Assembly: GCA_025210155.1 (NCBI GenBank) | Contig: JAOASE010000003.1 | Location: 11,519 to 75,518, forward strand | Direction of reading: 5' to 3' | From: Alphaproteobacteria bacterium | GTDB lineage: Bacteria > Pseudomonadota > Alphaproteobacteria > Rs-D84 > CASDRH01 | Length of the DNA: 64,000 nt | Shown: one piece after another, positions 7,600-27,328 of the stretch | Layout of the letters: every line of letters starts with the position of its first letter | Numbering within the stretch: position 1 is the stretch's first letter | The notes under the pieces: generated by a model | What the model was told of the DNA's origin: nothing | Databases searched by the model: none | Seen by the model: only the letters and a program-made list of their open reading frames with translations | Position numbers and translations under genes: made by a program

Positions 7600-7652
7600 A
7601 CAAGTTTATTTAAAGTAAAGCTAGAATCGAATTGCAGAGAAGGGAGAGAACA

Positions 7653-8177
7653 ATGAGGCAAAGCATAAAAAAGGCACAATTACCAAATAATTTTAAAATA
7701 AGATTTATCATTTCAAAAACAATATTTGATGAATTAAAGAGCATGCCTCACAAAACCAAACAAAACTTCGAACTAATAGAAACTATGGCTCAAAGCATAA
7801 TAAATCTTCTAACGAATAATTCAAAAGAAGTTATCAAAACGACATGCAAAACGCTGTATGAGAATATAAGGTATACGCAAAAATATTTAATGCATCACAC
7901 AGAAGATGACCTAAAAAAATTTAACTATGGACTTACAAAAGATGTGTATGATGAAGCTTTCCGACAATATAAAGAAAACAAATTTTATAAATCATATCAA
8001 AGAACTGTTACTAAATTATTAAAAGGGTATCACGAACACAAAACAGAAGATAAATATAGAGAAAAACTTTTTCACTATCATAAAGAACAACACTTTCCAG
8101 ATTGGGCAAAAGAACAGTCTGAAATATTGAAGCTCTCGGGCTTCATTTTTTATAACCAAATAAGATGGAGTAAATAA
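7653..8177 (+). CDS. Hypothetical protein
   Basis: ORF 7632..8177. The ATG at 7653 follows GAAGGGAGAGAA, the likely start. Confidence 0.4.
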   Translation: MRQSIKKAQLPNNFKIRFIISKTIFDELKSMPHKTKQNFELIETMAQSIINLLTNNSKEVIKTTCKTLYENIRYTQKYLMHHTEDDLKKFNYGLTKDVYDEAFRQYKENKFYKSYQRTVTKLLKGYHEHKTEDKYREKLFHYHKEQHFPDWAKEQSEILKLSGFIFYNQIRWSK

Positions 8178-8179
8178 AA

Positions 8180-8398
8180 ATGAGAATATTAATAAAAGAA
8201 CTACTAAAAGTACTAGTCGTAGATATTGCAAAATTTGTAATAAACATAGCTAGTAAACCAGTTAAAGATATTGCAAGTAGTGTTGCAAAAGCAAGCGCAA
8301 ATGCAGTCGCAGTAAGAGCAGAAAAAACAAAAGCAGATATAAAAGAAATGATTGAATCATCTAAAGAAAAGCTGGAGGAAAAACTAAATGACAAATAA
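8180..8398 (+). CDS. Small Ala/Lys-rich protein (72 aa)
   Basis: Overlaps the next ORF in ATGA...TAA fashion, suggesting translational coupling. Confidence 0.3.
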   Translation: MRILIKELLKVLVVDIAKFVINIASKPVKDIASSVAKASANAVAVRAEKTKADIKEMIESSKEKLEEKLNDK

Positions 8399-9164
8399 CG
8401 AAATCAAAAAAGAAGTTAAGGAAGAAACTAAAAAGGTTGAAGAAGTTACAATTTCTAAAAAACCAGATTTCTTACCAAAAAAATTCTGGGATGAAGAGCA
8501 GGGCACAACAAGGCTGGAAGAAATGTCTAAAAGTTATAAAGAGTTAGAAAAAAAACTTTCTCAATTAAGCCAAGAAGTAAATTCCCTTAAGGAGGAAAAG
8601 ATAGCAGCAGAGGATAAAAATCTTTTAAAAGGAGAAAGCTTACCATCATCTCCAAAACAATACTTAGACGAAATTGATTTCGATATAATAAATGCTTCAG
8701 AAGAAATTAACCAAGTTCTTTTCGATGCGAAATATTCCGTTGAGCAAGTAAGAACTTTCTACGATGTTTTAGTTAAGTTTATAATGCCTGAAATCTTAGA
8801 GCTATATCATGATGTGAAAGCATATAATGATCTAGAAAAATTAAAGGATTATTTTGGCGGAGAAGAAAAATTTGCTTCTATCTCTAGACAGATTAATTCC
8901 TGGGCAATTAAAAACCTTGAAAGCAGAGTTTACAAGAGTTTATCAAAGGATAGCAAAGGAGTTATTGCTATGTATAAAATGATGCAAGAAGAAAAAAACA
9001 ACAATTCCTCATCAATAAATTCTCTACAAGACGGACACAAAAAAACAAGAGAAGAAGAGGAAAAACATCTTAAAGATATGATGAAAAATCCTTCTTACTG
9101 GCGAGACAAAGATCCTGAATATAGAAACAAAGTAGAAGAAGGTTTTAAGAATCTATACACATAA
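8388..9164 (+). CDS. Putative scaffolding protein (T7 gp9-like C-terminus)
   Basis: Acidic coiled-coil protein. Its C-terminal MMKNPSYWRDKDPEYRNKVEEGF resembles the T7 gp9 C-terminus (…MSDPRYRTDANYRRQVEQKV), as recalled. Lies upstream of the capsid gene. Confidence 0.55.
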   Translation: MTNNEIKKEVKEETKKVEEVTISKKPDFLPKKFWDEEQGTTRLEEMSKSYKELEKKLSQLSQEVNSLKEEKIAAEDKNLLKGESLPSSPKQYLDEIDFDIINASEEINQVLFDAKYSVEQVRTFYDVLVKFIMPEILELYHDVKAYNDLEKLKDYFGGEEKFASISRQINSWAIKNLESRVYKSLSKDSKGVIAMYKMMQEEKNNNSSSINSLQDGHKKTREEEEKHLKDMMKNPSYWRDKDPEYRNKVEEGFKNLYT

Positions 9165-9378
9165 ATTAGTATAATAAATAGTATTTAAAGTATTTTGTGC
9201 GAATAGATGTAAAGATGATTTTTATATTTGGTATTGTGTATATTTTAATACTCAATTGCCAAAGATTAAAATCATTTTTTACGATTAGCTCGTGCAAAAG
9301 AGTTTAAATAATAATAATAGCTTGAAAAAAAGAACTAATAAGATATAATACGCTCATCAAAATAAGAAAGGAGCAATT

Positions 9379-9987
9379 ATGCCTTATAACAATAACAGAC
9401 GCGGTCCATATAAAAGTAACAACCGCAGAAGAGCAAAAAGCAAAAAAGGTTTGATTTATAAAATAAACGAAAACCTAATAATGAAATGGTCAATATTATT
9501 ACTAGTTATCTTCCATTTCGCAATGAGCGCTATGTTTAGAGCAGAAAACTTAAACCAAGTATTTGGTCTATCGGCAATAGCTGAATTTGGAGTTCTATCT
9601 TTAAGAATATTCCAATCATTCTTATTCATTTTCTTACCATTAGTATTAATCAAATACTTCAAAGTTAGAAAAGCAAGAATAAGCTTAAGCTCAATAGCAA
9701 GAAAAGCAATATGCAAAAGAATTGGCCTAGCAGTATTATTAGGTCTAGCAATCACATTGCTATCATTCTTCTCACCAAACAACGGTGGAGAATTCTTAGT
9801 AAGAAGATATGTAGGAATTTTTGCTATACACTCAATCTATGTGTTCTTAATGATTTCAGCATTAACAGGAATTTGGAAAGGTTTCTCTTTCATCTTCGAC
9901 GCTGAAAAACAACAAAACAGAAGAAGAAATAACAACGGATATAATAAAAATAATAGACGTCCAAGAAGAAATTATTCTAAAAAATAA
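9379..9987 (+). CDS. Membrane protein with four TM helices and Arg/Asn-rich N- and C-terminal tails
   Basis: N-terminal NNRRGPYKSNNRRRAKSKK and C-terminal KQQNRRRNNNGYNKNNRRPRRNYSKK tails flank the hydrophobic helices. Strong SD AAGGAG. Terminator at 10017-10050. Confidence 0.5.
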   Translation: MPYNNNRRGPYKSNNRRRAKSKKGLIYKINENLIMKWSILLLVIFHFAMSAMFRAENLNQVFGLSAIAEFGVLSLRIFQSFLFIFLPLVLIKYFKVRKARISLSSIARKAICKRIGLAVLLGLAITLLSFFSPNNGGEFLVRRYVGIFAIHSIYVFLMISALTGIWKGFSFIFDAEKQQNRRRNNNGYNKNNRRPRRNYSKK

Positions 9988-10016
9988 TTTTAGTTTCTAC
10001 TGAGAAGTAATTACAA

Positions 10017-10050
10017 AGCCCTAAGTTTTCCTAGGGCTTTTTTGTTATTT
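10017..10050 (+). terminator. Intrinsic terminator (agcccta-loop-tagggct + T-run)
   Basis: Perfect 7-bp stem, 8-nt loop, TTTTTGTTATTTTT. Confidence 0.75.
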
Positions 10051-10337
10051 TTCTAAATAGCAATTAAGAGACAAACCGAAAGGTCCTCTAAACAAAAAAC
10101 AAATAAAATCAAGGCGTTTTAATCAAATTAAAACACAACCTATCGCAATTAAATAAATCAAAAAAAATAATATCACGAAAATCTTCGCAAATAAGTATTT
10201 AGGGTTTAACCGAGTATTTTGTGCGAAGGAAGGTAAAATAAATTTTAAATCGCAGGGAGTTTATAGTTAATAAATGACCAAGATTTAATAATTGTAATTT
10301 TGCCTTAAATTCGTGCAAAAGACGAAAGGTAAAAAAA

Positions 10338-11165
10338 ATGGCTAATACTATAGACCAATCATTCATAAAAAACTTCGAAGCAGAAGTTCACTTAGCATAC
10401 CAACAAACAGGTACAAAATTAAGATCAACAGTTAGAGTTAAAAACGACGTAATTGGATCAGCAACAGTATTCCAATCAGTAGGTCAAGGAACAGCATCTA
10501 CTAAAGAAAGAAACGGCTTAATCCCAGTGATGAACGCAACACACACACCAGTAGAATGTGATCTACAAGACTACTACGCAGGCGACTGGGTAGATAAACT
10601 AGATGAATTAAAAACAAACATCGACGAAAGAGCTGTTATCGCATCAGCAGGTGCATACGCTTTAGGTAGAAAAACAGATGAGCTAATCATCACAGAACTG
10701 TCTAAATCTACTCAAGAAGTTGTTGAAAATTCAGAAGGCTTAACAAAAGGCAAAATCATGAAAGCTATCGAAACATTAAACGCAAATAATGTTCCAGACG
10801 ATGGTCAAAGATATGCTGTTGTAGGCGTTCACCAATGGACTGAATTATTAAATATGCCAGAGTTCACTTCAGCAGATTACGTAGGTGATAACTATCCACT
10901 AGTTAACGGTGCAGAAGCAAGAAAATGGATGGGGGTAATTTGGATCTTACACACAGATTTGCCATTAAGCACAACAACAAGAGAATGCTTCATCTACCAC
11001 AAGAATGCAATCGGTCACGCAATCGGACAAGATGTAAAAACAGACATCAGCTGGCAAGGTGAAAGAGCTGCAAACTTTGTATCAAACTGCATGAGCCAAG
11101 GTTCAGTTCTTATCGACGCAAAAGGCGTAGTAAAAGTATCTTGCGACGACACAACATCAGTTTAA
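10338..11165 (+). CDS. Major capsid protein, T7 gp10-like (short form)
   Basis: The C-terminal GERAANF...GVVKVS resembles T7 gp10 ...ERARRANF...AVVFKV. Position between the scaffold and gp11-like genes. A strong terminator follows immediately, as Tφ follows gene 10 in T7. Confidence 0.6.
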   Translation: MANTIDQSFIKNFEAEVHLAYQQTGTKLRSTVRVKNDVIGSATVFQSVGQGTASTKERNGLIPVMNATHTPVECDLQDYYAGDWVDKLDELKTNIDERAVIASAGAYALGRKTDELIITELSKSTQEVVENSEGLTKGKIMKAIETLNANNVPDDGQRYAVVGVHQWTELLNMPEFTSADYVGDNYPLVNGAEARKWMGVIWILHTDLPLSTTTRECFIYHKNAIGHAIGQDVKTDISWQGERAANFVSNCMSQGSVLIDAKGVVKVSCDDTTSV

Positions 11166-11189
11166 AAACTGCTTGAGATATAGAATATA

Positions 11190-11216
11190 AGACCGTTTTC
11201 AAAGCGGTCTTTTTCT
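11190..11216 (+). terminator. Intrinsic terminator directly after the capsid gene (agaccg-ttttcaaag-cggtct + T)
   Basis: 6-bp stem plus T-run. Same position as T7 Tφ. Confidence 0.7.
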
Positions 11217-11374
11217 CATTTAAAGCATACATTTTGAATCAACACTTTAACTAATTTACAATATCCAAGTTGACTCAACACTTCAATTGAATCAATTAAT
11301 TAAGAATATAAGCCTAAGAATCGGAAAAGACTCAAACTTTAACCAATAAAATCACCAATTTACAGGAGAACAAA

Positions 11375-11953
11375 ATGCCATCATCTACAACAAAAATCGA
11401 TATTTGCTCAAAGGCCTTAATGAAGATAGGAGCAAGTCCAATCCAATCACTAGAAGAGAATACTTCAGAAAGCATTATCTCATCTCAATTTTATGACATA
11501 GTAAAAGAGAGTTTATTATCAGAACATGAATGGTCTTTCGCAACAAAAACACAGGAATTAAATATCCTGAATGTAGAGAGTGATCAAGAAGGATACGAGA
11601 ATGTTTTCCAATTACCACATGACCTAATAAGAGTGTTAAGCATAAGCTCTTCAGCAAATGGAATTTCTATAGACTATAAACTTTATCAAGATGAAATTCA
11701 TACCAACGCAGAGAAAGTTTATATCACATACATATATAGAGTCGGAGAAAAATACTTTCCTCAATTCTTTGTAAATTTAATGACTACTTCTTTAGCAAAA
11801 GAATTTGTTATGCCACTGACGGAAGATAACTCAAAATATAACTCATTAATGAACGAAAGTATAATGCTTTTATCAAAAGCTAAAAACCAAGATTCAGATC
11901 AAACAAAAATTAAAAAGATAAAAACATTTAGTTTAATTTCAAGCCGTAATTAA
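11375..11953 (+). CDS. Tail tubular protein A (adaptor), T7 gp11-like
   Basis: 192 aa (T7 gp11 is 196 aa). ICSKALMKIGASPIQSLEE...SEHEWSF resembles gp11 VNDILASIGEPPVSTLEG...SRGWTF. Confidence 0.7.
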   Translation: MPSSTTKIDICSKALMKIGASPIQSLEENTSESIISSQFYDIVKESLLSEHEWSFATKTQELNILNVESDQEGYENVFQLPHDLIRVLSISSSANGISIDYKLYQDEIHTNAEKVYITYIYRVGEKYFPQFFVNLMTTSLAKEFVMPLTEDNSKYNSLMNESIMLLSKAKNQDSDQTKIKKIKTFSLISSRN

Positions 11954-11981
11954 AAAATTAAATTAATAAAGGATACAATAT

Positions 11982-14063
11982 ATGCAAAAGTCATACACAA
12001 AAAGCAACAACTTCAGATTTGGAGAAGTGAATTATTCTGGCTTAGAGAACTTAGGATCCAAGTATAAAAACAATACATCTTTCCTTCAAAGAAATATGCA
12101 GGTAGAAGAAACTGGTCAAATCAAACGAAGACCTGGATTAAAGAAAATTTCAGACCTTGAAGAGAATGCTAAGATTATTTCTATGCAGACTAGCATAGAA
12201 GACAAATATATTTTAGCTATAGGAGAAAGTAAGATAAGAGTTTTCAAGGACGATAAGCTAATCTGTACAATATCAAAAAGCCCCTTTAAAAAAGAAATAC
12301 TTTCAAGTTTGCAATATATCTCTAAAGATAATAAAATTTTCGTTACCCACCCAGACATAGAAACAAAAGTCATAGTAAAAGAAAGCGATACTAATTGGAA
12401 AATTCAAAATATAGAATTTGATATAGATTCTTATACGGGTGAAAGTTTTGAGCCATTCGCATACTTTGAAGATATGCAAAATAAAGGTATAAAAGCAACT
12501 CCTATAATAATAGATCCAGAAGATTTAGATTGGGATCAAGAGGGCGCTGGTGAATGGGTTTTAAATCCAGATTGGATGGAGAGAAATGAACCAGCATATA
12601 CTTTCGTAGAGGACGAATCTACACCTCCCCCTCAAGTAGAAATAACATGCTCCGATATATATGATATATTCAATTTCGATTGCAAAAATATAAAAATGAG
12701 AATTGGAGATGGGGAATATCGAATTACCCACGTAGTAACAACAAGGAAGTTACTAGGAGAAATAATAAAGCTTCCTACTGATTTTAAAGAGAAAAATCCT
12801 TCAGTCTCAGAACAAGCCTTTTCAAAAAAGCGAGGTTGGATAAGAAGTATAAATTTCTATCAAAACAGAATGGTGGTAGGTGGATCAAAATCGCTTCCCA
12901 AAAGAATATGGATGTCTAAAACAGATAACTTCTTTAATTTTAATTTAGGATCAGCATACGATGGAGATGCTATAGAATTTGATATACTTTCCCAAAATGA
13001 AGAAACTATTCAAACAATATTTACAGGAAGACATCTTCAGGTTTTTACAAATAATGCTGAATGGATAGTAACAGGATTTCCTATCACACCAACTAGTATA
13101 CAATTGCAGAAACAAACAGAACTAGGTTCAAACCAAGACAACTATCTTAGCCCTCAGTTTATAGAAGGTTCTACAATTTTTATATCTAAGAACAAATCAG
13201 AAGTTTGCGAATTCTTCTTTGGAGAAATAGAGGAGCAATATCAAACAGAAAACCTAGTTAGCTTATCTAATCATTTATTAAATAAACCACTAGAAACATC
13301 TTACAATAAAAATGAAAAAATATACTTTATAGTAAACAACGATGGAAGCCTAGCCACATTGACCATGAGTAAAAATTATGGAGTTAGATCTTGGGGACTA
13401 TGGGAAACAAAAGGTTCATTTATCTCAGTGGAAAGTTTGAATGAAGAAACTTATGTGGTAGTAAGAAGAAACGACAAACCATATTTAGAAAAGTTTGATT
13501 TCACAGAATTAAATACCTATACAGATTGCGAGATTACCATATCCAGAGAGGATGATAAAAGAGATAATATATTTGAAATTATAGATTATCCAGAACTTTT
13601 AAAAATAAAGGACTTAAAAGAGCAAACTAATGCAATAATTTTAGCAATAGGAGACGGCGAATTCCTAGGAGAACCTATCATAGAGAATGATGCTATAAAA
13701 CTTCAAAAACCAGTTAACAATCTAAGATTAGGAATAGCATATAGGCATATCCTTGCTCCATCACCAGAGATGATAGAATTTAAAAAGATAAGATTGCTGG
13801 AAGTTTCTTTCAGATTATCAGAAAGTAAAAACCTTTCAATAGATACTGGGCAAGGAATAAAGAATATATCATTAAAAGAATACGATAATTCAGAAACATT
13901 CCTTTCTTCAGAAAATATAAAAGGAACTTTCTCAGGGGATATAAATATAAAATCATTCGGATGGAAAAAAGCAGGAAGCCAAATACTTTGGAAAATAGAT
14001 GATTATTATCCAAACAATTTCAAGGTAATTTCATCACTCTCAAAATTTATTGTAAATAAATAA
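11982..14063 (+). CDS. Tail tubular protein B (nozzle), T7 gp12-like
   Basis: 693 aa. N-terminal ETGQIKRRPGLKKISDL...KIRVFKDDK resembles gp12 ETEGLQKRPPLVFLNTL...GIRVFDLSGNEK. Internal FYQNRMVVGGS...NFFNFNLGS resembles gp12 FFRNRLGFLSG...KYFNFYPAS. Confidence 0.7.
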   Translation: MQKSYTKSNNFRFGEVNYSGLENLGSKYKNNTSFLQRNMQVEETGQIKRRPGLKKISDLEENAKIISMQTSIEDKYILAIGESKIRVFKDDKLICTISKSPFKKEILSSLQYISKDNKIFVTHPDIETKVIVKESDTNWKIQNIEFDIDSYTGESFEPFAYFEDMQNKGIKATPIIIDPEDLDWDQEGAGEWVLNPDWMERNEPAYTFVEDESTPPPQVEITCSDIYDIFNFDCKNIKMRIGDGEYRITHVVTTRKLLGEIIKLPTDFKEKNPSVSEQAFSKKRGWIRSINFYQNRMVVGGSKSLPKRIWMSKTDNFFNFNLGSAYDGDAIEFDILSQNEETIQTIFTGRHLQVFTNNAEWIVTGFPITPTSIQLQKQTELGSNQDNYLSPQFIEGSTIFISKNKSEVCEFFFGEIEEQYQTENLVSLSNHLLNKPLETSYNKNEKIYFIVNNDGSLATLTMSKNYGVRSWGLWETKGSFISVESLNEETYVVVRRNDKPYLEKFDFTELNTYTDCEITISREDDKRDNIFEIIDYPELLKIKDLKEQTNAIILAIGDGEFLGEPIIENDAIKLQKPVNNLRLGIAYRHILAPSPEMIEFKKIRLLEVSFRLSESKNLSIDTGQGIKNISLKEYDNSETFLSSENIKGTFSGDINIKSFGWKKAGSQILWKIDDYYPNNFKVISSLSKFIVNK

Positions 14064-14150
14064 TATTAACTATTGATTTAAACTTTCATATGAGTAAACT
14101 ACGATGAGTTATTTTATATAACTAAATTTAAATATGAAGGAGAAATCATA

Positions 14151-14429
14151 ATGAAAAAAGTATTACTTACAGCTATTATAGCTTTAACAGCATCATGTGC
14201 TACAAGACCTCACCAAGTTACTAACGTTAAAGTAGCTCCAAGTGAATTAAAAGTTGGAAAATCTTGTGAAGATAGATTTTTACACATGTTCCCAATGGGT
14301 TCAAAAAATGGAAACTCAATTCTTAGAGCTAAAGAAAGTGCTGGTATTACACAAATTATGAGTGTCGATGTAGAAGGTAGAAACTGGATCTTAGGTTCAA
14401 CTGAATGTACTATCGTTACAGGTAAATAG
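14151..14429 (+). CDS. Small lipoprotein (signal peptide plus lipobox LTASC)
   Basis: MKKVLLTAIIALTASC. Strong SD AAGGAGAAATCATAATG. Own terminator hairpin at about 14445-14480. Confidence 0.5.
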   Translation: MKKVLLTAIIALTASCATRPHQVTNVKVAPSELKVGKSCEDRFLHMFPMGSKNGNSILRAKESAGITQIMSVDVEGRNWILGSTECTIVTGK

Positions 14430-14516
14430 TTTACAAAACTAAAGAATTAAAATTACAGTCGGAAATATCCGGCTGTTTTTTTTATACAATAATCAATCAC
14501 AAAAGGAGAGATAAAG

Positions 14517-14993
14517 ATGATATCACTAATATCTAGTGTCAACTCACTAGGATCTGATCTAATTTCAGGGAGCAGTTCAAAGGACGAAAGCCGATTGGCT
14601 AGAGAAAGAGCAAAAGAAGAAAGCAAAATAAATAAAGAAATAGCAGAAGTTAATAAGTACTATTCTGATTTAGAAAGTAGAAATCTTTTAGAAGAAAATC
14701 TAAGCAATATTTCAGCAAACTACGGAGCTTATAATATGAGTTCTACAGAAGGTTCTGCAAAAGCCGCAAAGAATAGAGCCGTTAGAGATTACAATAATGA
14801 CACAGCTCAAAGGCAAAAGCTATTTGATCTAAATATGGAAAAAGCAGACAAACAACTTCAATTTGATACAGAGGCAAATCTATTAGAATATGATAAAAAT
14901 TCTAAAAGAAATAGCCTTAACAATTTCGAAAATATATTAAAAGAAATCGAAAGCCACGACGAAACTCTAAGATCTCAAAGATATAGAACATAA
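14517..14993 (+). CDS. Hypothetical coiled-coil protein (phage module)
   Basis: SD AAAGGAGAGATAAAGATG. No recognisable motif. Confidence 0.4.
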   Translation: MISLISSVNSLGSDLISGSSSKDESRLARERAKEESKINKEIAEVNKYYSDLESRNLLEENLSNISANYGAYNMSSTEGSAKAAKNRAVRDYNNDTAQRQKLFDLNMEKADKQLQFDTEANLLEYDKNSKRNSLNNFENILKEIESHDETLRSQRYRT

Positions 14994-15005
14994 AGGAGAG
15001 AAAGT

Positions 15006-15719
15006 ATGATAACTAACAAATCAGTCCTAATAACATACCTAGCAAATGGAACTTCAAAACAATTTTCATTCCCATTTAAAATATATTCAGCAGATGAATT
15101 AAAAGTGTCCATAAATGGAAAAGAAATACAAACTACATTCATTATAGAATATCACGAAGATGTAGAAGGTGGAATGATAACATTTGAAACAGCTCCAGTT
15201 ACAAATTCAGAAGTCTCAATCAAGAGAGTTCTAGATATTACGAGAAAGCACGACTTTCAATCAGGTGGAAGCTTCAGAGCTGAAGACATAAATCAAGAAC
15301 TAGACTACCAAACTCTGTGCCTTCAACAAGTTAATTACGAACTTGGGAATGCAATGAAATTTGGATCAGATGTCGAAGATCAAGATATAGACTTAACTGT
15401 TCCAGAACCAAAAGCGGGTTGTATGATGGTTTGGAACAAAACAGAAAATGGACTAGAACTAAGAAACGCTGACCTAATAATAGAAGCAAGCAATGAAGCT
15501 CATGACTATGCAACTATCTGCCAAGATATGTACGATGCAATGTCTACATTATTAGGAACTTCAGAGACAGCGGGTTTAGCAGGAAAAATCCAAGACATAT
15601 TAACTTTCTTAAATAATAAATTCCCAGAAGACTTTGATGATAATGGTGAGATAAAAGATAGCTCATTAGTATCTAATGACTTAGGAGAAATCACAGAAGG
15701 CGATAATGGCGGAATTTAA
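15006..15719 (+). CDS. Tail fibre protein, N-terminal (tail-attachment) domain only, T7 gp17-like
   Basis: MITNKSVLITYLANGTSKQFSFPFKIYSADELKVSING...VSIKRVLDITRKHDFQSGGSFRAEDINQ parallels T7 gp17 MANVIKTVLTYQLDGSNRDFNIPFEYLARKFVVVTLIG...IELRRVTSTTDRLVDFTDGSILRAYDLN. The protein is 237 aa against 553 aa for gp17. Confidence 0.7.
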   Translation: MITNKSVLITYLANGTSKQFSFPFKIYSADELKVSINGKEIQTTFIIEYHEDVEGGMITFETAPVTNSEVSIKRVLDITRKHDFQSGGSFRAEDINQELDYQTLCLQQVNYELGNAMKFGSDVEDQDIDLTVPEPKAGCMMVWNKTENGLELRNADLIIEASNEAHDYATICQDMYDAMSTLLGTSETAGLAGKIQDILTFLNNKFPEDFDDNGEIKDSSLVSNDLGEITEGDNGGI

Positions 15720-16347
15720 AGATGAAAAAAATTTAAAAGAAAATATAGAAAAAATAACATTTTTAGATTTCATAGAATTATGGAATCAAGATCAGGAGCA
15801 AACAACTCCTGCCCACCATAAAAAGATTGCACGGTGGTTAGAAAAATTATGGCTTGAAGAAAAGTCAGACAGAAGAGGGGTTTTAATGTCCTTCAGAGGG
15901 TCAGGTAAATCTACCATAGTAGGTTTATTCTGCTGTTGGCTACTTTATCAAAACCCAAATCTAAGAATATTGGTAATATCAGCAGAAGAACGCCTAGCTG
16001 GTAAAATGAGCAAAAATGTCAAAGCCATAATAGAAAGACATGCGCTGCTTTCACATCTTATACCAAAGAAAAAGGGAGGGCGATGGGCAAGCAAAGAATT
16101 CACCATAGAAAGGTTCAAAGAAATGAGAGACCCTTCAATGCTTGCCATAGGACTTTCAGGAAACGCAACGGGATCTAGAGCCGATATAATAATATGTGAC
16201 GATGTCGAAGTCCCAAATACTTGCGATACTGAATTGAAAAGAGAAGAGTTAAGAGAGAGATTGGCAGAGTTAGAATTTATAATAACGCCAAAAGGAATGA
16301 TTCTATATGTGGGTACTCCCCATACAGAAAATAGTATTTATTATTAA
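15706..16347 (+). CDS. Terminase large subunit, ATPase domain (T7 gp19-like), N-terminal ORF of a split gene
   Basis: Walker A FRGSGKST and Walker B IIICDDVEV. LRILVISAEER, TGSRADIIICDDVEVPNT and LYVGTPHTE match T7 gp19 LKILIVSASKER, TGSRADIIIADDVEIPSN and IYLGTPQTE. Ends with TAA at 16345-16347. Confidence 0.85.
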   Translation: MAEFKDEKNLKENIEKITFLDFIELWNQDQEQTTPAHHKKIARWLEKLWLEEKSDRRGVLMSFRGSGKSTIVGLFCCWLLYQNPNLRILVISAEERLAGKMSKNVKAIIERHALLSHLIPKKKGGRWASKEFTIERFKEMRDPSMLAIGLSGNATGSRADIIICDDVEVPNTCDTELKREELRERLAELEFIITPKGMILYVGTPHTENSIYY

Positions 16348-16681
16348 AAAAAGAATCAGTAAAAGGGAAATATTCATTTTTGGACAAAAAAATATGTCAA
16401 GAAAGTTCTAAGAAAAAACAGTGGCTTACAACTTAAAAATAAGAAAAATGAAAAAAATGTCAAAAAATAGTTGACAAAATAAAATGAAAGTTCTAAACTA
16501 AACTTACTTTCGGAGATCTCCCTACTTATTTCTCTCTCCTCTTTAAGAAGACTCCGAAAGTTCTTTTTAATCCTCGGAGTTTCCTTTATATATCCTTTCC
16601 TCCTTTTTTTAAGAGCTCCGAGGTTTATTTAAAATGCGCCGCAAGGCGTTTTTTTATTGTCTAAAATCCAGGGGAGAATAA
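16348..16681 (+). other. 334-bp non-coding insertion splitting the terminase gene; carries two ~64-bp tandem hairpin repeats, a TTGACA-N17-TAAACT promoter-like site and a GCAA-tetraloop terminator
   Basis: Hairpin A 16506-16561 (actttcggag / ctccgaaagt, 10 bp, 36-nt CU-rich loop). Hairpin B 16572-16623 (cctcggag / ctccgagg, 8 bp, CU-rich loop). Units A and B align as direct repeats. 'gaaagttct' occurs three times. Terminator 16636-16657 (cgcc-gcaa-ggcg + T7). Then the SD GGGGAGAATAAATG. Confidence 0.6.
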
Positions 16682-17551
16682 ATGCAAAAGATTTACAACA
16701 AAACAATAGATAACGAATTAAAACCTAAAGAAGAAGAAACAGAAAAGCTTCTATCAGGATATAAAAGATTAAAAATTCCTTTGTTATCAGAGGCTGGAAG
16801 ATCAGCTTGGTCAAAAAGATTTCCTCTGAAAAGAATTAAAGAACTTCGTAAACGAGTAGGGGAAAAGAAATTCCAAGCTCAAATGCAATTACAACCAGTA
16901 AACTTAACAGATCCATTTTTCGATATAAATGATTTCAAAACATATGACATATGCTTTTCAAAAACAGAGCAAAACTTCCGATCAGTCTATAAAATTAATA
17001 ATGAAAAAGTCGTCCAGGCCTCATCCTATTGGGATCCATCTTCATGTGGAAGAAAAAGAGACGGTTCAGTTCTAGTCATAGCATTCAAAGATAACAAAGA
17101 CAGAATATACATAGAAAAAATCATATACTTAAACTCAATTATCAAAAGAGGCGAGGAAGGAATAACGAAACAAATAGAAGAAGTTATTTCTATATTAAAA
17201 AAATACGATATAGGAATAATTCACATAGAAACAAATGGTATAGGGAAATTTATCCCAGAATTAATAAACAAGGAAATTCGCCGACTACGACTAAAAATAG
17301 AAGTCTCAGAAATTTATAATCATAACAGCAAGAGTATAAGAATTATGGAAGGAATAGAACCTCTAGTTTCAGCAGAAATAATAAGCTTTAATAAAACAAT
17401 ATTTTCTAAGGCAAATCAGTTCATAAATGAAATTAAAAATTGGCGACCAAACATAGACGGAAAAGATGATGGATTGGATGCCGTTTCAGGCATAACATTA
17501 AATAGGTTTAAGAATATAATTCCATCACCATCAATTATGAAATTTTATTAA
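16682..17551 (+). CDS. Terminase large subunit, nuclease (C-terminal) part, T7 gp19-like
   Basis: RIKELRKRVGEKKFQAQMQLQPVNLTD matches T7 gp19 [28 protein letters not shown]. An in-frame TAA lies immediately upstream of the ATG. Confidence 0.75.
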   Translation: MQKIYNKTIDNELKPKEEETEKLLSGYKRLKIPLLSEAGRSAWSKRFPLKRIKELRKRVGEKKFQAQMQLQPVNLTDPFFDINDFKTYDICFSKTEQNFRSVYKINNEKVVQASSYWDPSSCGRKRDGSVLVIAFKDNKDRIYIEKIIYLNSIIKRGEEGITKQIEEVISILKKYDIGIIHIETNGIGKFIPELINKEIRRLRLKIEVSEIYNHNSKSIRIMEGIEPLVSAEIISFNKTIFSKANQFINEIKNWRPNIDGKDDGLDAVSGITLNRFKNIIPSPSIMKFY

Positions 17552-17630
17552 AACTTTTTACTTTTATAAATATATGATTTTTGTTATAATAAAGCCAAAA
17601 TATACTAATAATTTTAAAAGGAGTTAGATT

Positions 17631-18077
17631 ATGACAAAATTCAATCAAAGAGGTAGAAGTATTGTAGAAGTTATCGGTGTTCTAGCAATAGCTTCAATCG
17701 GTATCGCTCTTGCAATGAGAACTTATCAAAAGAATGATGCAAAAGTAAAAATTACAAAGACTATGTATAATATTTCAGAATTAACAGATAGTATTAAAAC
17801 TATATACTGGGGAAGAAACAGCTATAGTGGAATAAATGTTACTCGTCTAGAAAATAAAGGTGTGGATCCTAAATTCTTAAGAGATGCATATGGTACAAGT
17901 TTAGTAATAGGTTCTCAATCTCCATTTAGTTCATATACAATCCAAATTGTAAATATTGAAGATCAAGAAGATTGCTATAAATTTGCTGCTAAAAAACTAG
18001 AAGGTATGGATGAAGCTGAAACGACAGATACATGCTCATCTACATCTAATAAAACAGTTACTTTCACTTTTAATTAA
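17631..18077 (+). CDS. Type IV pilin-like protein (prepilin-type N-terminal domain), tandem paralog 1
   Basis: N-terminus MTKFNQRG|RSIVEVIGVLAIASIGIALA: a Gly followed by Glu at +5 and a hydrophobic helix, as in class III signal peptides (KGFTLIELMIVVAII...). SD AAAGGAG. Confidence 0.55.
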   Translation: MTKFNQRGRSIVEVIGVLAIASIGIALAMRTYQKNDAKVKITKTMYNISELTDSIKTIYWGRNSYSGINVTRLENKGVDPKFLRDAYGTSLVIGSQSPFSSYTIQIVNIEDQEDCYKFAAKKLEGMDEAETTDTCSSTSNKTVTFTFN

Positions 18078-18089
18078 GGAATTTATAAG

Positions 18090-18557
18090 ATGAGAAAAAA
18101 TAATCAAAAAGGTATGTCTATCGTAGAAGTTTTAGGAACTTTAGCAATAGTAACAGTAATGTCAGTTCTTATAGTTTCTTTCTATACGAAAGTATCTACT
18201 AAAGCTACATTCAAAAGAACAGAATTCTTATTAGAAGATATTAGAGGAAAAATAAATTCTATTTATATAGATGGTAATTATTCAACTCTAACACTAGATA
18301 ATTTAAATGATGAACTAGAAGGCCAAGAATTAATAAAAGCAAAGCACCCATTCGGTGGAGACGTTGCTCTTTGCGGTTCATCAGACGGTTTCAATATCCG
18401 TTTAAGTGACCTAACTCTTGAAGAGGCTACTAAATTAGAAGCACTTGGAGAAGGTGACTTAGAAAAAGTATCAGACGATGTTTATAGAATAATTGCTTAC
18501 AAATCTAATAGTAAAGCAAAAGATTACGACAACACAAGATTTTGTAACAACTTCTAA
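18090..18557 (+). CDS. Type IV pilin-like protein, tandem paralog 2
   Basis: MRKNNQKG|MSIVEVLGTLAIVTVMSVLIV, the same architecture. Followed by the terminator 18584-18608. Confidence 0.55.
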   Translation: MRKNNQKGMSIVEVLGTLAIVTVMSVLIVSFYTKVSTKATFKRTEFLLEDIRGKINSIYIDGNYSTLTLDNLNDELEGQELIKAKHPFGGDVALCGSSDGFNIRLSDLTLEEATKLEALGEGDLEKVSDDVYRIIAYKSNSKAKDYDNTRFCNNF

Positions 18558-18583
18558 TAAAGTTTAAACAAAACTAATGAAAA

Positions 18584-18608
18584 CGCCCTCAATTGAGGGT
18601 GTTTTTTT
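18584..18608 (+). terminator. Intrinsic terminator (cgccctcaattgagggtg palindrome + T7)
   Basis: Perfect palindrome followed by a T-run. Confidence 0.75.
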
Positions 18609-18793
18609 ATAAAAAACTTCATCAAGCAATCTCTCCCCAGAGAGTTTTGGATAGTTTGCTTTAGATAGAAGCGAAAATGATTTTTAAATTTAATATTGCG
18701 TATATTAATACTCAATCGTTGAATTTCAAAATTATTTCTCGCGATTAGATGAAGTTAAATATACGAAACATTAATATTATAAAGGATAATTAA

Positions 18794-20329
18794 ATGAAAA
18801 AAATACCAGAAATAAACTCAAACTTAATAAATAGAGATACTCTAATTAAAGAATATAAAAAGGCAAAAAACAAAAGAAGCAATTGGGAAAATCTTTGGGA
18901 AGATTGCATAAAATATTCATCCCCAGAAAGATATGGAAGCTTCTATAACTCATTCCAAGAAGCTAATAAAAACAATGTAGATATCTACGACTCAACTGCA
19001 ATTTGCGGGGTAGAAAATTTAGTATCTACAATAGCTTCAAGCCTAACACCATCATATGAAAAATGGTTTAATTTATCTCTAGGAAATATCACTGTTGAGG
19101 ATGAAACAACAAAAGCAAATATTGAAAAAGATATAGAGAAAATAGAAAAAACAATTTCAGAAAATATCTCACTTTCAAACTTCGCGACAGAAATACAACA
19201 ATGTTACTTTGATCTAGTTACATTGGGAACCTCTTGTCTGTTCTTCGAAGAAAACCAAATAGGTAAAAAATCTGCCTTCAGGTTTAAATCAGTTCCATTA
19301 AACCAACTGACTATAGATGAAGACAGCGAAGGTAACGTAAATAAAATCTATAGAGAAACAAGCATAACGGTAGAAAATCTACAACTTCGTTTCCCAGAAT
19401 TTTTTGAAGAAAATGGTTTAAGTAACCTCGCAACAAAGTTCAAAGAAGAGCGAGTTAAACTGATTGAAGCTGTAGTCCCTAATATGAAAGAAATAGGACA
19501 GCAAGGCTTTGTATATACAGCATTTATAGAAGATGAAAAAAATATCCTTACACCTAAAAAATCAGCAAAAGAAGATAACATATTAGTATTAAAAGAAGGT
19601 GTCTTACAAAGCTCTCCATTCATTTGTTTCAGATGGTTAAAAACCTCAAGCGAAGTATATGGAAGATCACCGGTAATGAAGGTTCTTCCAGATATCAAAA
19701 CAGCAAACAAGGTTGTAGAACTAACTTTACAAAACGCAACAATAGCAATCTCAGGAGTATGGCAAGCTGAAGACGACGGAGTAATTAACTTTAATAATAT
19801 TGATCTGTCACCAGGTTCAATAATACCAAAAGCAATAGGCTCTCAAGGTCTATCACCATTACAAACAGGAGCTAACTTCAACGTTTCACAACTAGTCCTT
19901 TCAGACTTAAGAAACAATATAAATAAAGCGTTCTATACAGATGTTCTAGGTAAGCCGGAAGAAAGCAAACAAATGACTGCAACAGAAGTTTCTGCAAGAA
20001 CAATGGAATTATATCAAACACTTACAGCAGTGTTCTCACGACTTCAAACGGAACTCCTTACACCATTAATCGAAAGAGCAGTAAGCATCCTTAAAAGAAG
20101 AGGGGAGATAGCAAACCTAATCATAGATGGAAATATAATCTCATTAAAATACAGTTCACCAATAATGAACGTAAACAACGACAGAGAAATAGCAAACATC
20201 CAAAGATTTATATCTTCACTAAGCATTCTAGGAGAAGGTCAATTATCCAACATAATAGATACACAAAAGTTAATAAACCACCTAGCAGAAATCACATCCA
20301 TCCCAAAAGGATTGCTAAAAACAGCCTAG
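18794..20329 (+). CDS. Portal (head-to-tail connector) protein, T7 gp8-like
   Basis: 511 aa (T7 gp8 is 536 aa). The N-terminal YKKAKNKRSNWENLWEDCIKYSSP...IYDSTAICGVENLVSTIASSLTPSYEKW parallels gp8 RLKNDRAPYETRAQNCAQYTIP...WQAVGARGLNNLASKLMLALFPMQTW. Confidence 0.7.
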   Translation: MKKIPEINSNLINRDTLIKEYKKAKNKRSNWENLWEDCIKYSSPERYGSFYNSFQEANKNNVDIYDSTAICGVENLVSTIASSLTPSYEKWFNLSLGNITVEDETTKANIEKDIEKIEKTISENISLSNFATEIQQCYFDLVTLGTSCLFFEENQIGKKSAFRFKSVPLNQLTIDEDSEGNVNKIYRETSITVENLQLRFPEFFEENGLSNLATKFKEERVKLIEAVVPNMKEIGQQGFVYTAFIEDEKNILTPKKSAKEDNILVLKEGVLQSSPFICFRWLKTSSEVYGRSPVMKVLPDIKTANKVVELTLQNATIAISGVWQAEDDGVINFNNIDLSPGSIIPKAIGSQGLSPLQTGANFNVSQLVLSDLRNNINKAFYTDVLGKPEESKQMTATEVSARTMELYQTLTAVFSRLQTELLTPLIERAVSILKRRGEIANLIIDGNIISLKYSSPIMNVNNDREIANIQRFISSLSILGEGQLSNIIDTQKLINHLAEITSIPKGLLKTA

Positions 20330-20409: not shown

Positions 20410-21186
20410 ATGATTATTGAAAAAAGTTATTTGTATGAGGCATTGACAGGTAATGGTAACTGTTATGTTGTTGATCAAATGGAATCTACTATGGATCCTT
20501 TTAAAGAAATGAAGCTTGGAGATATAGAACTCTCGGAATGGGACGTTATTGTGGCTCGACTTCAAACTAAAGGAAAAGGAAGAACTGGTAGAAAATGGTT
20601 GTCAGAAAAAGATCAAACATTGTGTTTTTCTATGGCTTTACCAACTTCTTATGCAGCTTTAGCACTTAAAATAAACATTATTAGTGGATATGCTATCTGT
20701 GATGTTATTAAGGAGTTTGTAGGTGATAGGGCTAAAGTGAAATGGCCAAATGATGTCCTAGTTGATAAAAGAAAGTTATCAGGGATATTGTTTCATAATA
20801 ATTCTGGTAATTTATGTATGGGTATTGGTGTGAATATAAATCAAACATCATTCCCTGAAGAAATAAAGGATATTGCAACTTCATTGCGTATTGTAACAAA
20901 TAAGAATCATGATCCAATAGAAATATTAGATAAGATTTTAAAATCCTTTATTTATAAGTTAAAACTTCTTCTTTCCGAAGAGCTTAAAATTGAGGAAAAA
21001 TACCCAGAGTATTCTCAATACTATAATCAAAAAACTAAAGTTCACTTAAAGGATGGAAGTAGTTATAAAATTATAGATAAAGGGATAGATGAGGATGGTT
21101 TATTAATAGCTCAAAAAGAAGATGGAACTGAAGAGCATTTGGTTTCAGGAATAGATGTTGGAATAAACCTTTATCCGAAAAAATAA
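20410..21186 (+). CDS. birA: Biotin--[acetyl-CoA-carboxylase] ligase (BirA catalytic type)
   Basis: LQTKGKGRTGRKW is the GRGRxGRxW biotin-binding motif. Confidence 0.8.
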   Translation: MIIEKSYLYEALTGNGNCYVVDQMESTMDPFKEMKLGDIELSEWDVIVARLQTKGKGRTGRKWLSEKDQTLCFSMALPTSYAALALKINIISGYAICDVIKEFVGDRAKVKWPNDVLVDKRKLSGILFHNNSGNLCMGIGVNINQTSFPEEIKDIATSLRIVTNKNHDPIEILDKILKSFIYKLKLLLSEELKIEEKYPEYSQYYNQKTKVHLKDGSSYKIIDKGIDEDGLLIAQKEDGTEEHLVSGIDVGINLYPKK

Positions 21187-21837
21187 GTTTAACTTTTTTT
21201 GTAAATTTTCATCTTTAGATAGTTCAGGATGAAATCCAAATAGAAATACCTTTCCTTTACCATATATTTTATATATTGATGCGTATTTATCAATTTTGGA
21301 ATATAGGAAAGGTATTTCTACTTCTTCTCTTTTTTCTGGTATAAATTCAGGGCCTCCATTATAATATGTTTTAAATTTTTCCGAAAACCCATCAATAAAA
21401 ATATCAGTAGCAGAGGAAAAATCATTTCTATATAAAGGGGCAATTTCTCTAATAGTTCCTTTGCAAGTTCCAAAGAATAATTTAAGATCTCCATCTGTAT
21501 TTTGAACAGTGTTTATGACACCATCATTTCCTATAAAGTCAATGTGTGAAGATGCATAATATGCTCCGGCACAAATTCCAATATAAATACCTCCATTTTT
21601 AATAAAATCTCTAATAATAATATTTCCATTACCATAAAGTTTATCAGTATAAAACCTAGCTTCTCCACCAGGAATTATTAAGATATTATCTTTAGATAGA
21701 TATTTTTTAGATAGTATGTCTTTAGAATTAATTGTAAAAACATTTTTAGAATTAAAAGTTAACATAGCCCAATTTTTAACTTTTTTAATATGTTTTTTTA
21801 CAACACCATCATCATTATATATATAAATGTTTTTCAT
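21145..21837 (-). CDS. Class I glutamine amidotransferase-like protein resembling the BPL_N domain (the N-terminal domain of eukaryotic-type biotin protein ligases)
   Basis: LIIPGGEARFY...IRDFIKNGGIYIGICAGAYYAS matches the recalled BPL_N/GATase-1-like pattern (PGG...GG.YLG.CAG.Y). Convergent with birA; the 3' ends overlap by about 40 bp. Confidence 0.45.
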   Translation of the reverse strand: MKNIYIYNDDGVVKKHIKKVKNWAMLTFNSKNVFTINSKDILSKKYLSKDNILIIPGGEARFYTDKLYGNGNIIIRDFIKNGGIYIGICAGAYYASSHIDFIGNDGVINTVQNTDGDLKLFFGTCKGTIREIAPLYRNDFSSATDIFIDGFSEKFKTYYNGGPEFIPEKREEVEIPFLYSKIDKYASIYKIYGKGKVFLFGFHPELSKDENLQKKLNLFFRIKVYSNIYS

Positions 21838-22525: not shown

Positions 22526-22850
22526 TTTATATATTTTTGGTTATTTATATTTTATCTACTATACAAATCAGCATATACTCGAAAAAATATTTGTCAAGCT
22601 ATTTTTCAAAAATTATTTCTCTAATCAAATCTCCCTTGAAAATTATTAAATGGTCTGGTATCTTATTCCCATAAAAGGAAAGGTATTTTAAGATATTCAT
22701 CCAATAAACGACAACTCTTGGAGTTTTGGATAGTTTGCTTTAAATATTTTTAAAATCGGCTTTCGTATAGTATAAATAATACTTGAGAAATCGATTATTA
22801 AAAATAGATATGAAAAATATACGAAACCCTAGTATTACAAAGGAAATATA

Positions 22851-23753
22851 ATGAAAGTTTACGTAATATATCACAGAACAGATTTTGATGGCAGAGGTTC
22901 AGCAGCGGTAATAAATGACTTCTACAGAAACAAAGAAGGTTTCGAAATAGTAAACATTCCATTAAATAATGAAGAAGTTCCTCATGATTATAAAGAATGG
23001 GATAAAGATGCCATGGTTTATATGTCAGATATATCTTTTCCGAAAAGAGAGCAAATGGAATATTTGCTAGAAACTTACGGTGATAACTTTATTTGGAATG
23101 ATCACCACGCATCATCTATGAAGAATTGCGAAGGTCTAAACATTAGAGGTATACAAAGAGCTGATTACGCAGCAATACAACTAACTTGGTTCTGGTTCAA
23201 TCAAGATAAATTTTCAAGTATAGAAACAGCTAAATTCCCAGAAGCAATAAATTACGTAGGACACGTAGACATAAAGAAACCTTTAAAAGATTCAGAAGAA
23301 TTCCTTACGGCATTAATTTTGCATACAGAGTTATATGACCCAACAAATCCAGATTGGGAAAAATTAATAAATAACGATGAAGGTATGCTTTCTACATTAT
23401 TAACAGAGGGCAGGGTAGCTCAAAGATATAGAGAGTCTATAGAGCAAGAAGCAGCTCAAGAAATCATTCATTTCGTAGAGTTCGAAGGTTACAAAGTTCC
23501 AGCAGCAAATATATACTTCTTCAAGTATGAAGTATTCTTCCACGCAAAAGAAGGAAACCTATATGAGGAGTATCCATTCGTAATAACTTATTATAGAAAT
23601 AACGAAGGACAATGGAAGCTTTCTCTAAGAGGAACTGGTAACGAAAAGTATAAAGATATCGATGTAAGTCTCCTAGCTAAAAAACATGGTGGCGGCGGTC
23701 ATAAAAAAGCTGCAGGCATCAGATCTAAAGAGCTTCCGTTCAAGTATCTATAA
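22851..23753 (+). CDS. DHH/DHHA1-family phosphoesterase (NrnA-like nanoRNase / pAp phosphatase type)
   Basis: HRTDFDGRGSAAV (motif I), NDHHAS (DHH), and C-terminal KHGGGGHKKAAG (the DHHA1 GGGH motif). Confidence 0.7.
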   Translation: MKVYVIYHRTDFDGRGSAAVINDFYRNKEGFEIVNIPLNNEEVPHDYKEWDKDAMVYMSDISFPKREQMEYLLETYGDNFIWNDHHASSMKNCEGLNIRGIQRADYAAIQLTWFWFNQDKFSSIETAKFPEAINYVGHVDIKKPLKDSEEFLTALILHTELYDPTNPDWEKLINNDEGMLSTLLTEGRVAQRYRESIEQEAAQEIIHFVEFEGYKVPAANIYFFKYEVFFHAKEGNLYEEYPFVITYYRNNEGQWKLSLRGTGNEKYKDIDVSLLAKKHGGGGHKKAAGIRSKELPFKYL

Positions 23754-26205: not shown

Positions 26206-26348
26206 AGATATAATTTTTATATAAAAACTGTGTTCTTAAATAAATATCAACATCAAAAATATTTGTAAAGTAAAAAACAATTGACAAATTGATAGTATAA
26301 TAATATTTTCCTAAGAAGAAAAAAATATAAACCTCAAATTACAGTTAA

Positions 26349-26765
26349 ATGTCAAAAGCAAAAAAAGAAGCTCTCGAAGATGTTTTATCTTACATATCAA
26401 CCTTTATCAAAAAGCTAGACTACAGGCAAATAACCACTCTAGAAAAAGATATTGAGAAATTTTTCCAAAATAAAGACTTGGGAATGATGTGGATAGTTAA
26501 CAACTTCGGAGATATTAGAGAAAAATCTATTTATATATTTAAAAATCCAGATGATGAAGCTGTTGAAATAGCAGATATAGAAAGGCTAGTAAAAACCTCA
26601 ACTATAGAAAACATTACAACTAATGCCATGGAGATCATTATCAGAAATGATATTTCCTTGGAAAGGAAAAAATATACAAATATAGAAAAAAGAACATTCC
26701 CGAGGGGAAAATATCTCATAAAAAACCATCTTTGTAAGATAATTTCCACTCATAATCCAAATTAA
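26349..26765 (+). CDS. Hypothetical protein, tandem paralog (138 aa)
   Basis: Paralogous to 26891..27328 (…IEKFFQNKDLGMMWIVNNFGD…IYIFKN). The promoter region is duplicated with it. Terminator at about 26783-26812. Confidence 0.45.
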   Translation: MSKAKKEALEDVLSYISTFIKKLDYRQITTLEKDIEKFFQNKDLGMMWIVNNFGDIREKSIYIFKNPDDEAVEIADIERLVKTSTIENITTNAMEIIIRNDISLERKKYTNIEKRTFPRGKYLIKNHLCKIISTHNPN

Positions 26766-26890
26766 TATTTGATAAGATTTAAAAAGGCATCCCTCCAGGG
26801 GTGTTTTTTTGTGAAAAAAATATTTGACAAATTGGTAGGATAATAATATTTTCCTTTAGGAAAAAAATTTAAACCTTTAAAAAAAGTTAA

Positions 26891-27328
26891 ATGTTAAAAA
26901 CAGAAAGTTTCAGAGTTAAACCAAGTAAAGAAGTTTTAAGTAATATTTTTAAATATTTAAAGAATATAGATTGTACTCCAACACCTTCTATAAAAAAGGA
27001 AATTAAAAACTTTTTCGAAAATGAAAGTATTGGAACTATTAGACTAGTTATTAACCATGATGTGGGTGAAGACGTGGGTAATGAAAAAAATCTTTATATT
27101 TTTAAAAATAAAAAGGTCGGTAGATTTACTCTCCCACTAGAGAGGTTAGAAGATAATCTAGTGATAAACATGGTTAATGACAGTATTAGAGAACTAGTTA
27201 TTAATAAGAATAATGTTCAAGCTAAAGATTTTAAGTCTATTTCAACTTCGAGATGGACAATATCTTCAGGAAGTTACTTTGCTGGATTTCCAACTTGCCA
27301 AGTAGTATCAAATTATAACATGGCATAA
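26891..27328 (+). CDS. Hypothetical protein, tandem paralog (145 aa)
   Basis: …IKNFFENESIGTIRLVINHDVGE…LYIFKN. Terminator at about 27337-27370. Confidence 0.45.
   Translation: MLKTESFRVKPSKEVLSNIFKYLKNIDCTPTPSIKKEIKNFFENESIGTIRLVINHDVGEDVGNEKNLYIFKNKKVGRFTLPLERLEDNLVINMVNDSIRELVINKNNVQAKDFKSISTSRWTISSGSYFAGFPTCQVVSNYNMA

Follow-up and report, generated by a model that had tools for sequence, protein, structure and literature searches.

Long sense-strand hairpins, most likely a small and recently spread family, upstream of podovirus-type structural genes and a DHH phosphoesterase gene in an alphaproteobacterial chromosome

Correia elements of Neisseria have TA target duplications and carry known IHF sites and promoters. 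These repeats (CREE/NEMIS) are ~100-150 nt long, end in inverted repeats and have no coding capacity; most of them lie immediately upstream of genes and form long hairpins, which are co-transcribed with the neighbouring gene and cut by RNase III in their inverted repeats (PMC10969869). Their subtypes combine different ends with different interiors, and copies are present in some strains and absent from others (PMC10969869). ERIC, REP/BIME and Rickettsia palindromic elements (RPEs) are imperfect palindromes of ~100-150 nt in AT-rich or intergenic DNA as well, which share a transcript with the genes beside them and may influence how stable the mRNA is; in Rickettsiales, RPEs in addition enter coding regions, where they are translated in frame. 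A comparable arrangement is found in T7-type phages, in which sense-strand hairpins with internal mismatches lie in the leaders or between the cistrons of the podovirus structural block, just upstream of the RBS, and serve as RNase III sites. The T7 sites measure ~50-60 nt and are conserved phage features.

Here, we describe hairpins with several of these properties from a 64-kb stretch of chromosomal DNA (~31% GC; "the window" in the following). A first-pass annotation had proposed a promoter cassette shared by phage-module genes and a host gene; what was seen there is most likely a set of long hairpins on the sense strand, each of 105-130 nt, which form a small family of recent spread and are located before four genes. 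Like Correia elements, the hairpins combine inverted-repeat ends of different types with related interiors, lie directly upstream of genes and, in two cases, are absent from the nearest relative. However, Correia elements occur in more than 100 copies per genome, whereas four copies and a fragment are known here, all of them within 15 kb, and neither a target duplication nor an internal promoter was found. The likeness to ERIC, REP/BIME and RPEs is one of architecture, no sequence relation to any of them being detected, and one hairpin (D) entered the 5' end of a DHH gene much as RPEs enter coding regions, although in this case the insertion displaced the start codon. The hairpins of the window differ from the T7 sites in having twice their length, in being missing where close relatives carry the same module, and in preceding chromosomal genes as well.

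From ~7.3 to 20.3 kb, the + strand of the window carries a reduced podovirus-type structural block (Table 1), in which no polymerase or integrase gene is present and which is flanked by ordinary chromosomal genes. The block (7291-20329; also in the relatives' loci L012, L013 and L016-L019) is conserved in many Alphaproteobacteria/Rickettsiales MAG chromosomes. A search with its capsid matched 4,777 proteins at E <= 1e-30, the best 120 of which show 65-72% identity. In these chromosomes, ftsZ often lies between the genes for terminase-N and portal. Among phages, HTVC010P-type pelagiphages come closest, at 32-45% identity. The block looks like a vertically inherited, domesticated, GTA-like particle cluster; FpGTA was called the first podovirus-like GTA in a 2026 paper (PMC12946183). 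The first module gene (7291) is preceded by a sigma-70-like promoter, TTGACT/17/TATACT (7108-7136), and by a leader of ~150 nt, which is possibly SD-sequestering, since a long-range helix pairs UUUUUUCCUUUA with the SD region UAGGGGAGAGAA (MFE -32.9 on the + strand vs -24.6 on the - strand). In the 335-nt gap between the two terminase genes (16348-16681), a strong promoter, TTGACA/17/TAAACT (16471-16499), is followed by two hairpins with large CU-rich, anti-SD-like loops and then by a terminator (16636-16649). Similar hairpins with CU-rich loops lie at the equivalent place in a relative (loci L016 15400-16250 and L003 about 318-432), and the gap is predicted to encode a candidate small RNA without an Rfam match.

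Table 1. Positions of the hairpins and of the features around them in the window; predicted MFE is given in kcal/mol for the + and the - strand
Feature	Position	Strand	Remarks
Scaffold gene	8388-9164	+	
Hairpin A	9182-9310	+	51 bp, 6 G·U; loop AUUUUA; top palindrome in window; 18 nt after scaffold gene stop (9164), ends 69 nt before ATG 9379; MFE -41.0 on +, -25.3 on -; z -6.0
Base arms of hairpin A	9193-9202 (TTTTGTGCGA) and 9290-9299 (TCGTGCAAAA)	+	
Sigma-70-like promoter of ORF 9379	9322-9349	+	TTGAAA/16/TATAAT; 3' of hairpin A
Arg-rich membrane ORF	9379-9987	+	
Hairpin B	10209-10330	+	45 bp; interior differs from A; ends 8-18 nt before capsid ATG 10338, weak overlap with SD GG; MFE -38.7 on +, -19.0 on -; z -4.6
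Base arms of hairpin B	10217-10226 and 10311-10320	+	same as A
Capsid gene	10338-11165	+	
Tail tube A and B genes, then short fibre gene	between capsid and terminase	+	
Large terminase, split in two genes	15706-16347 and 16682-17551	+	
Intrinsic terminator	18583-18610	+	after 155-aa gene; kept in L003; 5' edge of hairpin-C insertion
Cassette C	18642-18793	+	D-type base, A-type interior
Hairpin C	18644-18769	+	48 bp, 7 G·U; loop AUUA; MFE -36.8 on +, -16.6 on -; z -5.7
Spacer of cassette C			24 nt with SD AAAGGA; abuts portal ATG 18794
Portal gene	18794-20329	+	
Predicted DHH promoter	22636-22664	+	TTGAAA-17-TATCTT; upstream of hairpin D; read from sequence and alignment
Relic DHH RBS (AAAAGGAAAGG) and relic start codon	22673-22692	+	from alignment with L003+L027
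Relic DHH start	22690-22692	+	ATG changed to AAG; left upstream of insertion
Hairpin-D insertion	22714-22856	+	~143 nt vs nearest relative
Hairpin D	22717-22832, core 22723-22827	+	43 bp; MFE -24.5 (114-nt stretch) or -24.8 on +, -17.1 on -; z -3.8
D block homologous to C	22721-22850	+	
New DHH SD	22840-22845	+	
New DHH start (ATG AAA)	22851-22856	+	
Solo fragment CGATTAGTCGTGCAAAA	24589-24605	+	matches hairpin A right arm (9282-9299), no left arm; 18 nt before pfk ATG 24623; 2 matches, 0 expected

The initial claim of an ordered, reused cassette 5' of phage-module genes and one chromosomal gene is supported, and the similarity of the shared regions is well above chance. In sensitive local alignments, A and C match over 117 nt at 70% identity (9203-9319 vs 18665-18779, E 8e-14), and the whole cassette aligns between C and D (18642-18796 vs 22721-22853, E 1.6e-9). 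A fourth full copy, which had been overlooked, lies before the capsid gene (10191-10343 vs 9171-9322, E 1.7e-9). The gene identities hold as well: the portal matches PF12236 (E 1.6e-107), the Arg-rich membrane ORF can be recognized from its translation, and the third gene is of the DHH/NrnB-like kind. The latter (22851-23753) carries a JGI annotation as an NrnB-type oligoribonuclease/phosphodiesterase and belongs to a rare family, with 38 homologues at E <= 1e-5 among 5.8 billion proteins; its adjacency to the portal region is kept in the nearest relative.

The four sub-elements from which the cassette had been assembled fared differently. The first, GAGTTTTGGATAGTTTGCTTTA, is an exact 22-mer present at only two sites (18642-18663 and 22721-22742; 0 matches in 100 shuffles), so it is real, although it had been placed 2 nt off, and the second is common to 9232-9256 and 18694-18716, inside the longer alignment of A and C. 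For the third, CGATTAG, four occurrences stand against 4.4 expected by chance, and one of those listed, at 22777, actually reads CGATTAT; the heptamer is meaningful only within larger blocks, such as CGATTAG(C)TCGTGCAAAA at 9282 and 24589 (17-18 nt, 0 expected). The fourth had been described as -10-like. Its sequence AATATACGAAAC does recur exactly at 18758 and 22816, within a 37-nt block that is 81% identical between C and D, but the label does not hold: in ATATACGAAAC we see a hairpin's 3' base arm, and ATATAATACGCTC at 9344, which had been grouped with it, is the -10 of the separate promoter before ORF 9379.

What had been missed is that every copy is a long imperfect palindrome, in which the first and the fourth sub-element are the 5' and 3' base arms and the second is the apical third. 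Compared with itself on the opposite strand, the stretch 9174-9318 gives an alignment at E 4e-15 and the stretch 18644-18769 one at E 8e-11, A and C being the two strongest palindromes in the window; the third strongest, of 88 nt (21238-21323), lies at the junction of the biotin-ligase-related genes BPL and BPL_N (20410-21837), which are located between portal and a minus-strand 189-aa gene and are absent in L003, where portal directly adjoins that minus-strand gene. All four hairpins have the base 5'-UUUUG...CRAAA-3' in common, of which there are two types: TTTTGTGCGA...TCGTGCAAAA in A and B, and GAGTTTTGGATAGTTTGCTTTA...AAATATACGAAAC in C and D. Within a type the terminal arms are identical (22/22 and 13/13 between C and D, 15/15 and 12/12 between A and B), and TCGTGCAAAA occurs exactly three times in the window, each time on the sense strand and upstream of a gene. 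The interiors are related, those of A and C most closely (~80% identity). Since two base types combine with related interiors, the copies are recombinant mosaics, and the fully identical bases beside diverged interiors could reflect recent gene conversion instead of selection. The homology of C and D begins sharply at GAG (18642 and 22721) and does not stop at the hairpin but takes in the next 24 nt with the SD, ending about 1 nt short of the ATG; in hairpin register, 17 of these 24 nt are identical, against an upstream-region background of 8.6 ± 2.5.

A covariance model built from the four copies recovers them with 101.1 (A), 58.9 (B), 129.6 (C) and 63.1 bits (D). With filters off, the next best hit in the window reaches only 21 bits, and 171 kb of relatives' loci yield no match. 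A known RNA family was rejected, as the hairpins do not match Rfam at the gathering threshold nor at E <= 5; nor do they resemble any library entry in sequence. A phage origin of the hairpin DNA was rejected, with no match in 50,697 phage records and the 22-mer absent from IMG/VR. Scans with 20-mers of large genome and metagenome contig collections, neither of which includes the source genome, returned chance matches only, mostly to coding sequence of Bacteroidota. A second, unrelated pair of similar upstream regions was noticed at 26272-26364 and 26815-26906 (76-81% identical, including TTGACAAATTG.TAG.ATAAT); it precedes two adjacent small genes (26349-26765 and 26891-27328) that are candidate duplicates, and the pair probably arose when a gene was duplicated in tandem together with its promoter.

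Whether the palindromes matter as DNA or as RNA can be judged from their pairing. Compared with dinucleotide shuffles, the predicted folds have z-scores of -3.8 to -6.0 (Table 1), and the antisense MFEs are 30-55% weaker than the sense values across the copies. Among 41 mismatched positions in the stems there are 20 G·U and 0 A·C (binomial p 2e-6, some of the G·U being shared by descent), whereas neutral decay of a DNA palindrome should yield the two equally. When A and C are aligned column by column from base to apex, 31 of the 41 common paired columns are identical, five show one-sided changes that are still paired, and five are compensatory. In a structure-blind MAFFT alignment 75.8% of cells pair, as compared to 38-50% with slid partners, and the covariation score of 0.236 (shuffles, 0.157 ± 0.021) was reached by none of 500 shuffles. 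MAFFT followed by RNAalifold gave no consensus for the four copies because the alignment ignored structure; the base-to-apex column alignment and a user-supplied structure took its place. From the G·U excess, the weak reverse fold, the compensatory changes and the covariation it follows that pairing has been kept on the sense strand, most simply as RNA. This strand-specific pairing points to an RNA, not to a DNA operator, and all four copies and the fragment lie in sense orientation.

The promoter/operator reading, in which one dimeric regulator or one sigma factor co-controls phage-module and chromosomal genes at the DNA level, is therefore very doubtful, although the copies are palindromic, lie upstream of genes and have exactly conserved base sequences. 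No -35/-10 pair with 16-18 nt spacing is common to the + strands of A-D inside the hairpins in a consensus promoter scan, and a search of the copies by eye for CtrA-box, EcfG-type and sigma-54-like patterns found none. Promoter-like sites are as frequent in the region as in shuffles (75 vs 72.9), and the only strong one between 8000 and 25000, which is also the best match (11/12), is the promoter at 9322-9349; this promoter is not part of the repeated element, since it lies 3' of hairpin A, which does not overlap it. Hairpin D lies downstream of the predicted DHH promoter, for which the nearest relative has TTGAAA-17-TATATT at the matching place, and between the relic SD and start and the new SD and ATG, so that D would lie inside the transcript. 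With 84, 85, 87 and 106 nt between them, the base arms have a spacing too variable and too wide for a dimer to bind both on duplex DNA, and their complementarity is strand-asymmetric: it depends on G·U and is lost on the opposite strand. Moreover, the closest relative has the same genes without any cassette. In favour of an operator, more distant relatives have a perfect palindrome, TTTTGCAAATATGCAAAA, ~90 nt before the capsid gene (L013 1785-1802, L016 9902-9919), with arms resembling the base of A and B.

Other cis-acting roles were considered on the RNA level. A terminator or attenuator is rejected, as no U-tract follows any of the long hairpins, and so is attenuation via the small GAGAG-UUUUGG stem before C, which is weak and cannot be regulated by the long stem. 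SD sequestration was likewise rejected by in silico deletion: removal of the hairpin leaves the predicted probability that the RBS is unpaired at the same level (with/without, 0.44/0.52, 0.58/0.60, 0.69/0.67 and 0.41/0.39; background 0.53 ± 0.14). The hairpins are thus self-contained, leaving the predicted accessibility of the RBS unchanged and carrying no U-tract, and three roles are left: processing or stability as double-stranded RNA, binding of a factor at the conserved base helix, and tolerated selfish DNA.

The closest relative for comparison is the Logan assembly of SRR13663708 (contigs L003 and L027, which overlap by 24 nt and represent one organism), with a portal 88% and a DHH protein 67% identical to those of the window. 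Gene order is kept there (portal, minus-strand 192-aa gene, DHH, O-methyltransferase, pfk), and yet neither hairpin C nor hairpin D is present at the orthologous sites. In the portal leader, the relative retains the terminator, which is followed by 44 nt up to the ATG vs 183 nt, hairpin C included, in the window. Its DHH leader leads from the promoter directly to SD and ATG; the window keeps this SD at 22673-22683, and the N-terminus MDNKTVYIIYH of the relative has become MKVYVIYH. The pfk leaders also differ, the version of the window being the one with the solo fragment. As the nearest relative lacks both, C and D are recent insertions, and by this alignment D is shown to have entered the start of the DHH coding region, with a new RBS and start codon just 3' of it. 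More distant relatives of the module (L013, L015-L019; capsid ~70% identical) have no comparable long hairpin, and a sliding-fold scan combined with the covariance model found none in L003, L012-L019 and L027. In other relatives, the capsid gene is preceded by a short or a different hairpin, or by none, so a long hairpin is not an ancestral requirement of the module. Shorter structures include a 72-nt hairpin on TTTTGCA...TGCAAAA (L015 295-366) and TTTTGCCA...TGGCAAAA before the post-scaffold gene (L017 8870-8913); repeats of the TTTTGCA...TGCAAAA type have 4-58 nt between their arms in relatives, vs 84-87 nt in A and B. The base helix is either older than the long hairpins or a preferred insertion target. 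In independent assemblies, a 50.6-kb contig (L005) starts at 18655, inside the left arm of hairpin C, and two others (L004 and L006) both break near 13735 (~13732-13737), within tube B; possible reasons for these breaks are repeats or strain variation at other places in the genome.

The two empty sites are also an argument for the view that the hairpins are purely selfish palindromic DNA, MITE-like or akin to Rickettsia palindromic elements, which is mobilized in trans and tolerated in AT-rich intergenic DNA without a function for the host genes. This alternative is unlikely. With 105-130 nt the hairpins are of MITE size (under ~300 bp), they have no plausible ORF, their terminal inverted repeats are conserved within each type while the interiors are variable and mosaic, a solo fragment occurs before pfk, and one copy has inserted into the beginning of a coding region. 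The host genome, a low-GC alphaproteobacterial MAG, has relatives among MAGs labelled Rickettsiales, a group in which such elements are known (PMC10969869). However, the excess of 20 G·U over no A·C and the compensatory changes indicate selection on sense pairing, and all copies and the fragment are in sense orientation and confined to 15 kb, none being found in the other ~49 kb of the window. There is neither a transposase or IS partner in the window nor a target-site duplication; comparison of the junctions with the empty sites in L003 and L027 gave no direct repeat, a weak negative because the flanks are diverged. Finally, the homology of C and D extends beyond the hairpin through the SD to the ATG, which that of a unit bounded by inverted repeats would not.

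Sense-strand signal, uniform orientation, placement at start codons and clustering favour a cis-acting RNA role. The hairpins end 8-25 nt before the start codon of the capsid, portal and nrnB-like DHH genes, and a distance of 18-25 nt separates the 3' base arm from the ATG in B, C and D as well as in the solo fragment, four of the five cases; hairpin A differs, being located after the scaffold gene and upstream of the ORF 9379 promoter. A MITE-like character shows in the presence/absence pattern, the mosaic copies, the solo fragment and the copy that entered coding sequence, and it is compatible with an RNA role. Both aspects are combined in Correia elements, mobile repeats upstream of genes that RNase III processes (PMC10969869), and the hairpins are therefore filed here as a new family of that general kind.

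The balance of probability thus tips slightly towards a lineage-specific, MITE-like family of leader hairpins that act after transcription, perhaps as RNase III or stability elements. By this account, the elements would have spread recently within the lineage by duplication or recombination. Their position suggests that they are transcribed within leaders or intercistronic RNA, where they might act post-transcriptionally as self-contained modules of double-stranded RNA. The most plausible role would be that of substrates for RNase III-type processing, or of stability determinants that set the mRNA end beside the RBS, by analogy with the Correia elements of Neisseria and with the sites at which RNase III cuts T7-type phage transcripts. 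Action at the RNA level can be proposed with moderate confidence, the specific nuclease RNase III with low confidence: the predicted sense stems of 43-51 bp exceed the minimum of ~20 bp that RNase III needs as near-continuous double-stranded RNA, and the window showed no rnc gene. Since hairpin A lies upstream of a promoter, it could belong to a leader only if transcription reads through from the scaffold gene.

Instead of a nuclease, an RNA-binding protein, e.g., a structural protein of the particle, or the nearby CU-rich small RNA might recognize the base helix next to the RBS and thereby set the translation of the four genes together. Such a translational operator would fit base helices that are fully conserved between copies while the interiors drift, and 3' base arms that end 18-25 nt from the ATG in four of the five cases; moreover, the candidate small RNA inside the module has loops that are anti-SD-like. 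However, the two base sequences would demand two modes of recognition, the predicted accessibility of the RBS is unchanged by the hairpin, and a promoter lies in the 69 nt that separate A from its ATG. The analysis found no binding partner, and in RNAduplex the values for the candidate small RNA against the leaders were within background. We therefore regard this explanation as very unlikely. A broader scheme, which is very unlikely, would have hairpin and RBS form a portable 5'-leader cassette recruited by the host, tying the NrnB-like DHH nuclease, and perhaps pfk, to a post-transcriptional circuit of the domesticated podovirus-like (GTA-like) cluster, with the exactly conserved base helices read by a dedicated RNA-binding factor or by the CU-rich small RNA from the gap between the two terminase genes.

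The four genes may be co-regulated via a putative shared RNA element. If the hairpins do act on mRNA, a reduced alphaproteobacterial genome would rewire expression by copying whole leaders, consisting of structure and RBS, and one of these copies displaced the original start codon of a gene. For annotators, the case carries the caution that "motifs" repeated before genes, instead of being promoter boxes, can together make up the arms of a single RNA structure. Taken alone, the hairpin family adds a modest, lineage-specific example to the familiar class of palindromic repeats; of greater interest is the conserved podovirus-like cluster of particle genes in which it lies.
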